DNA of 64,000 bases from an uncultured Candidatus Saccharibacteria bacterium (GCA_964432405.1 CAYSNH010000001.1:497-64496); one strand, 5' to 3'. Counted from the first letter of the stretch, positions 54,098-55,670 are shown. Numbers and translations are program-made. Notes: generated by a model from the sequence alone, not told the origin.

Positions 54098-54182
54098 ATA
54101 GTTACAAGTATAACAAAAACTTTCTAGCTGTCCCAACAAATCGAGACTTGAGGCTCCTCGATCAAAACCTTGTATCTTCTTT

Positions 54183-55670
<1,488 letters not shown>

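Follow-up and report, generated by a model that had tools for sequence, protein, structure and literature searches.

The window, by which we mean the whole 64,000-nucleotide stretch of DNA that was analysed, carries a full-length bacterial 16S rRNA gene, complete with helix 45, on its minus strand (54183–55669; RF00177, model positions 1–1533, 1420 bits). The gene stands alone, with neither tRNA nor 23S genes behind it, no spacer tRNA and no tRNA gene anywhere in the 64-kb window. It is preceded by a promoter-like site, TTGACA-N16-TACAAT (55901–55928, minus strand; 11 of 12 matches, a consensus match only), and its leader and trailer are predicted to pair over about 27 bp, AACAAGAGUUUUCUAGUUGUUCCAAUA at 55723–55749 with UUUGUUGGGACAGCUAGAAAGUUUUUGUU at 54112–54140 (both on the minus strand; minimum free energy −60.3 kcal/mol, z = −6.74, unmatched by any of 200 shuffled sequences). 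The fold is that of a classic pre-16S processing stem, just inside which lies a trailer hairpin (54140–54163, minus strand). Fifteen nucleotides beyond the stem is the ATG of a response-regulator gene (53717–54097, minus strand; Pfam Response_reg), which has an A/U-rich upstream region, no Shine–Dalgarno (SD) sequence and type IV pilus genes behind it. Divergent from the 16S promoter-like site, a perfect TTGACA-N17-TATAAT (55954–55982, plus strand) stands ahead of a hydrophobic open reading frame (ORF) of 71 amino acids (56012–56227), the whole unit spanning 55954–56227.

Alignment to the 3′ domain of the covariance model places helix 45 at 54197–54219 (ACGUGUAGC-GGAA-GCUGUGCGU, minus strand, GGAA loop intact). 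The last 14 nt of the gene follow it, AGAACAAUUAAUUA at 54196–54183, and align without a gap both to the Rfam consensus GGAUcACCUCCUUu and to the E. coli counterpart GGAUCACCUCCUUA at positions 1529–1542, with CCUCC at 1535–1539. The tail is canonical in length, with AUUAA at 54186–54190 in place of CCUCC. Each of the four cytosines in the anti-SD core has been replaced, and G1530, A1531, C1533, A1534, U1537 and the terminal UUA (E. coli numbering) are unchanged. Because the alignment is gap-free, the change from CCUCC to AUUAA is one of substitution. There was no CCUCC at the canonical place after helix 45 in the window 16S, and no CCTCC within 25 nt in either the window or the contigs from the same species.

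The same arrangement recurs in independent data. The response regulator downstream of the 16S gene was present on 15 public contigs, eight of which extend to the end of the 16S, and helix 45, tail, spacer and junction were identical in 8/8 of these independent assemblies (JGI, Logan and ENA samples). The exact window tail was also found in three contigs with 98.8–99.2% identical 16S. Every contig carrying the 16S of this species had the same tail, so that a variant copy with a normal anti-SD was seen on none of them. The original prediction that this 16S lacks CCUCC at its 3′ end is thus borne out by the eight identical assemblies and by the RF00177 alignment, which sets an A/U-rich tail at the 3′ end and not a CCUCC-containing one.

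Relatives were retrieved with patterns for the h44/h45 linker and helix 45, the tail being specified in neither of two scans. The scan of species-representative genomes returned at least 120 loci, from which counts are to be read as a sample and not a census; its pattern was broader than intended and matched many Actinomycetota, and these extra matches served as canonical controls. Among the matches listed, all 27 species-representative genomes with the helix-45 type of the window (CACGNGUAG...CGUGGA) lacked CCUCC, their tails including UUAAUUAAAUUU, AUAAUUCAAUUUGAAA and ACAAUUAAACUUUU, whereas 84/84 distinct sequences with other helix-45 types carried GGAUCACCUCCUU. The metagenome scan, which required the exact helix 45 of the window (CACGUGUAGC-GGAA-GCUGUGCGU), returned 96 contigs, none with CCUCC within 25 nt; at the canonical place, 95/96 have no CCUCC and the remaining one, L138, reads UCUCC. 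Among the matches listed, 94/94 distinct sequences of this type were without CCUCC, and the type thus marks a clade lacking the anti-SD (aSD-less). Informative names among the aSD-less genomes were Ryan-, Taylor-, Jorgensen- and Nomurabacteria, Paceibacteria, Minisyncoccia and 'Parcubacteria group', and the anti-SD was kept, among the matches listed, in Magasanik-, Falkow-, Uhr- and Moranbacteria, Saccharibacteria, Actinomycetota and Chloroflexota.

As far as its 16S can tell, the organism, an ultra-small uncultured bacterium, belongs to the Parcubacteria (Paceibacteria/Minisyncoccia; Patescibacteria, CPR), a placement no finer than class that follows from its closest 16S matches and from the helix-45 and tail signature it has in common with them. 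Identity to the named aSD-less relatives is only 77–87%, which makes the window 16S a deep branch within the clade. On this distribution, the loss of the anti-SD appears as an inherited, clade-wide state and not a defect of one gene. Three tails may represent intermediate states: that of contig L138 (8613–8647, plus strand), whose helix 45 is identical to that of the window and whose tail is one substitution off at GGAUCAUCUCCUUUCUA (UCUCC); that of L056, a Ryanbacteria genome, GGAUUUUCUCCUAGUAAGGA (CUCCU); and that of L098, GGAUCAUCUCCUUUUUAAGGAG. By eye only, and not universally, many aSD-less tails (for example, L037, L067, L069, L019 and L071) have a short complementary segment after the substituted positions, such as UUCAA-U-UUGAA, GUCA-AG-UGAC or UCCAA-U-UUGGA, resembling the canonical CCUCCUUUCUAGGGAG as if tail–trailer pairing had been kept by compensatory change. 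Contigs with Parcubacteria-type 16S were also found in metagenome-assembled genomes labelled Saccharibacteria, Spiroplasmataceae, Gammaproteobacteria or Bdellovibrionales (L025, L029, L045, L063, L071, L074, L101, L113, L125 and several aSD-positive loci), probably through mis-binning or mislabelling.

For the mRNA side, ORFs of at least 100 amino acids were called with a simple start rule, the rRNA was masked, and positions −20 to −4 were scored against ACCUCCUUA, with −40 to −24 as the control window. The 56 window genes had a mean duplex energy of −1.15 upstream and −2.32 in the control window, which is a depletion; the corresponding values were −4.77 and −2.01 in 50 kb of E. coli and −4.49 and −1.35 in 50 kb of B. 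anthracis pXO1, which is AT-rich like the window. GGAG, GAGG or AGGA occurred at −20 to −4 in 4/56 window genes and at −40 to −24 in 7/56, compared with upstream frequencies of 14/37 in E. coli and 13/37 in pXO1. A larger set of 549 dereplicated genes from 104 aSD-less loci gave −1.62 versus −2.00 in the control window. SD enrichment was therefore absent from both the 56 window genes and the 549 clade genes, with both controls positive, and neither mark of canonical SD-led initiation, CCUCC in the 16S and SD enrichment at −5 to −15, was found. TruB, FtsZ, a PilB-type ATPase, Pth and bL31 are all encoded in the window as named earlier, and the claim that their start codons (truB, ftsZ, pilB, pth and rpmE) lack an SD reflects a real scarcity.

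Two exceptions had been proposed, one of which stands. The motif AGAAGGAGA at 55998–56006, followed by N5 and ATG 56012 of the 71-amino-acid ORF, is the only well-placed SD-like motif in the window and the one real SD-like exception; by rough estimate, base composition gives around a 10% chance that a set of about 57 genes will contain one 6-nt match of this SD-like kind, which leaves this motif within chance. The other, AAGGAGG, lies at 3153–3159 (plus strand) rather than at 3157 and belongs to the coding sequence of an ORF starting at TTG 3143 (LNKQGGTLIIGAGPAG, a Rossmann-type N-terminus), where it falls in the codons for K-Q-G-G. The 71-amino-acid ORF was also called in three other assemblies (L001, L002 and L005). 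We considered that it might be rpsU (bS21), as in Flavobacteria, and rejected this because it is hydrophobic and matched no Pfam family.

The SD signal was equally lacking in 30 aSD-positive Patescibacteria-like loci (161 genes, −1.20 versus −1.74; including L010, L022, L036, L040, L048, L062, L105, L110, L114 and L127), which contribute few genes, those adjoining rRNA operons. They scored −0.04 in a start-independent 'best of six candidate starts' test, which fails the E. coli control. If true genome-wide, the lack of SD in these relatives would mean that loss of SD use preceded decay of the anti-SD, and the data hint, tentatively, at an order in which SD use went first, as in Bacteroidia, and a subgroup of Paceibacteria then lost the anti-SD sequence.

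Taken as a whole, the explanation that we consider highly probable is a clade-wide substitution of the anti-SD, mRNAs without SD sequences and initiation that is independent of SD pairing. With the anti-SD core substituted, ribosomes cannot form the SD helix, and the expectation that translation initiation in this organism would be largely SD-independent is supported by the A/U-rich tail together with the lack of SD enrichment relative to the controls. The rRNA side of this is an already published, clade-wide trait of a Parcubacteria subgroup: Tsurumaki, Saito, Tomita & Kanai (2022, RNA 28:1041, PMC9297842) report the anti-SD motif in only 48% of Parcubacteria, state that SD helices do not form in those without CCUCCU at the 16S 3′ end and associate anti-SD loss with loss of uL1, whose rplKAJL region lies outside the 64-kb window. 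That subgroup, as described there, presents the same phenomenon in the same clade by 16S relatedness. The paper treats presence or absence of the motif only, and the window adds the substitution pattern, the mRNA side and the trailer hairpin; in the literature searched, we found no paper on the change from CCUCC to AUUA[A/C] with a conserved replacement tail, on the absence of SD from the mRNAs or on the trailer hairpin. Since the core fact is published, the window mainly adds a well-documented instance.

The substituted tail is itself conserved. Across 94 distinct aSD-less sequences, among the matches listed, its consensus is G-R-A-W-C-A-A-U-U-A-M-A, with 1–2 bits per position over 12 nt and a fall to background by about position 20, a pattern that simple loss of function does not explain. 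To judge by this conservation, GRAWCAAUUAMA is under purifying selection, presumably for a role unrelated to mRNA pairing; contacts with the 30S platform, assembly and 3′ processing are candidates. Era reads GAUCACCUCC and is mostly absent from Paceibacteria, an absence that could have relaxed one constraint on the anti-SD cytosines.

The trailer hairpin is a second conserved element of this region. In the window it has the form GAUCGAG-GAGCCUCAAGU-CUCGAU, with a covariance-model match at 54132–54169, and its loop contains the nearest CCUC (54150–54153). That a CCUC lies in a downstream hairpin had been predicted correctly, although at about 60 nt; the distance is about 45 nt after helix 45. 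Related hairpins (GRYCGNG - GAKCYUYAAGU - CNCGRYC, with GGNGUU ahead) recur in no fewer than 35 distinct relatives, 15–100 nt beyond helix 45, including L025, L051, L104, L115, L120, L056, L103 and many of L133–L228. In 35 of these, RNAalifold found compensatory changes at 5/8 pairs (for example, GC 20 / AU 12 and AU 17 / UA 12 / CG 6), with 96.1% of cells paired versus 26–44% in slid controls. The hairpin model gave one match in the 64-kb window and elsewhere matched only behind 16S genes of the window's sub-clade, among them two loci outside its training set (L056 and L103); it had no match in aSD-positive Patescibacteria, other phyla, E. coli or pXO1, and Rfam returned no known family in the 16S trailer. 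On these results, the hairpin is a lineage-specific element of the precursor, possibly a processing or assembly signal.

Tail and hairpin might together form a new functional 3′ module of this Paceibacteria sub-lineage that has taken the place of the anti-SD, a 12-nt tail with a covarying hairpin 15–100 nt downstream, a reading that we regard as unlikely. If it were true, the tail or hairpin could be retained in mature 16S as a 3′ extension, or could have a role in a lineage-specific step of 30S maturation or initiation, for example by bringing in a protein that stands in for SD pairing or that favours leaderless and A/U-rich mRNAs.

Less probable still is that the tail has become a new anti-SD, with CAAUUAA... 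pairing to UUAAUUG-like motifs upstream of starts and initiation still depending on rRNA–mRNA pairing. Binding without a conserved core is a published category, 12 nt of the tail are conserved, and the pilin gene at 53084–53656 has UUAAUUGUU immediately before its ATG. TTAAT, AATTA and TAATT are about threefold commoner at −20 to −1 than at −40 to −21, and the longest exact match to the tail complement averaged 5.43 nt versus 4.62 ± 0.25 for shuffled tails, exceeding 500/500 column-permuted upstream sets. However, duplex energies with the native tail were no better than with 200 shuffled tails (z = 0.15–0.28), and when tails were swapped among other aSD-less species, their own tail performed no better than foreign ones (P = 0.69 and 0.89). 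The window's own tail ranked fourth to fifth of 28, behind purely A/T tails, and its ΔG was worse than with foreign tails. As the swap cannot test a conserved core, the G-containing core complement TAATTG was counted directly: it lies upstream of 11/549 clade genes versus four in the control region, an approximately twofold enrichment equal to that of generic A/T hexamers. Matches become more frequent toward the start as AT content rises, and no particular spacing stands out as a peak. The k-mer excess is therefore generic to AT-rich sequence near starts and does not support a general replacement SD; the tests exclude general base pairing of the tail with mRNAs and are compatible with a protein-mediated or assembly role.

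We give very little credence to a displaced anti-SD, in which a 3′-extended mature 16S would use the CCUC of the hairpin loop (54150–54153). The hairpin is a real, conserved structure and, being inside the processing stem, is part of the precursor, but its loop varies to CCUU, CUUU, CCAC or CCUA in relatives, and an element that is not conserved in this way is not a displaced anti-SD. CCTCC occurs in the 150-nt trailer of only 3/94 relatives versus 4.0 ± 1.8 expected and is thus not enriched there, the tail aligns position by position with the canonical tail with nothing inserted, and the genes offer no SD to pair with. On these grounds we rejected this role for the CCUC.

Just as improbable is that the 16S is a pseudogene, or a secondary copy beside another operon with a normal anti-SD. 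The window covers only 64 kb of the genome (about 84 kb with flanks in related loci) and the 16S is unlinked from 23S, yet the match is full-length at 1420 bits, helix 45 and the decoding region are intact, and the gene has its own promoter-like site and 27-bp processing stem. It is moreover identical in many samples and has a trait common to about 120 relatives with the tail under selection. Genes without SD speak against the use of any SD-reading ribosome. A single rRNA copy is usual in CPR genomes. Least probable of all, and close to dismissed, is that the SD scarcity is an artefact of mis-called starts or AT-rich composition: the starts did come from a simple rule, but the same rule recovers a strong SD in E. 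coli and in pXO1 of similar AT content, its starts agree with JGI calls in 13/14 shared genes, and pXO1 (−1.60) and the window (−0.13) come apart in the start-independent test, even though that test saturates and fails for E. coli.

SD-independent initiation on ribosomes with a substituted anti-SD would probably proceed by three routes. The first would be re-initiation or coupling between overlapping or tightly packed genes. Among same-strand neighbours in the window, 33/46 are separated by at most 20 nt, and overlaps account for 17 of these 33, a tight packing that favours termination–reinitiation. The second, which is also that of Bacteroidia, would be entry at A/U-rich start regions that are free of structure and have A at −3. 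The predicted folding energy of 40-nt segments was about −5 kcal/mol inside genes and −2.4 kcal/mol at start codons, and window starts had A at −3 at a frequency of 0.61, G at −1 at 0.02 and an AT content of 0.84 over −5 to −1. The mRNAs of the window thus have the features of the Bacteroidia type, with no SD and with A-rich, unstructured starts bearing A at −3.

The third route would be leaderless mRNAs for some promoter-proximal genes. In the 549 clade genes (from the window, the aSD-less genome loci L019...L125, and L133–L228), an exact TATAAT starts at −14 to −12 in 34 genes, versus 0–3 at other single positions. The looser TAnnnT was found at −14 to −11 in 36/133 genes of aSD-less genomes versus 9/133 at a control position, and no such excess was seen in E. 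coli or pXO1. Within the window alone, the leaderless signature is weak, with 3/15 operon-first genes carrying it and TAnnnT in 8/56 genes versus 6/56 at the control position; one example of leaderless-type spacing is the TATAAT at 1164–1169 (plus strand), at −12 to −7 of ATG 1176. This spacing suggests that leaderless mRNAs may be frequent in aSD-less Paceibacteria. Literature searches on Parcubacteria Shine-Dalgarno and on leaderless CPR returned no paper on the mRNA side and none on the TATAAT peak.

The nearest counterpart with mRNAs naturally without SD is that of the Bacteroidia, as described for Flavobacterium johnsoniae (Baez 2019, PMC6847099; Jha 2021, PMC7797042; McNutt 2023, PMC9976891), in which low structure, A at −3 and neighbouring positions tune initiation and A−3 is a positive determinant. 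Those bacteria differ in keeping the canonical anti-SD, which is hidden in a bS21/bS18/bS6 pocket and used for rpsU autoregulation, whereas here it is gone, with AUUAA replacing CCUCC; the genes for these three proteins lie outside the 64-kb window. A published category of 16S with no CCUCC core and no SD-type binding comprises mainly some Flavobacteriia and Nanoarchaeia. It consists of scattered species, and the main text of the paper that defines it makes no mention of Patescibacteria, Parcubacteria or candidate phyla; the clade that the loss marks out here is large and free-standing.

Mammalian mitochondrial 12S rRNA is, like the window 16S, without an anti-SD. Mammalian mitochondrial mRNAs are leaderless, to which the −10 box at leaderless spacing in this clade can be likened. 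In contrast to the mitochondrial case, the rRNA here is a full-size bacterial 16S with a bacterial-type processing stem, and most genes cannot be leaderless because they lie inside operons.

SD/anti-SD pairing is the textbook way in which bacteria select their start sites, and the anti-SD ranks with the most conserved rRNA sequences; a large, environmentally abundant class in which it has been substituted away amounts to a natural experiment in SD-free translation. In practical terms, gene finders that score SD motifs would mis-call starts in aSD-less genomes, and expression designs based on an SD would fail there. To the published loss, the present analysis adds as leads mRNAs without SD, leaderless-type promoter spacing, a conserved replacement tail and a lineage-specific trailer hairpin.

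Several minor features of the window also stood out. Around 55180–55200 (minus strand), the 16S reads GUGCCAGCAGCUGCGGUAAUAC where the bacterial consensus is ...GCAGCCGCGG..., a mismatch at the site where common V4 primers bind. A class-I release factor (56578–57330, plus strand), starting directly at the rpmE stop codon, is only 250 amino acids long; its N-terminal domain is missing, the PCRF match beginning at profile position 98/194. Finally, two paralogous long ORFs of 617 and 606 amino acids (15383–17236 and 23603–25423, both on the minus strand) have nearly identical N-termini (MCAINGFNFNNKELLLKMNE...) and sit in a low-GC stretch (about 31%, at roughly 8–35 kb).
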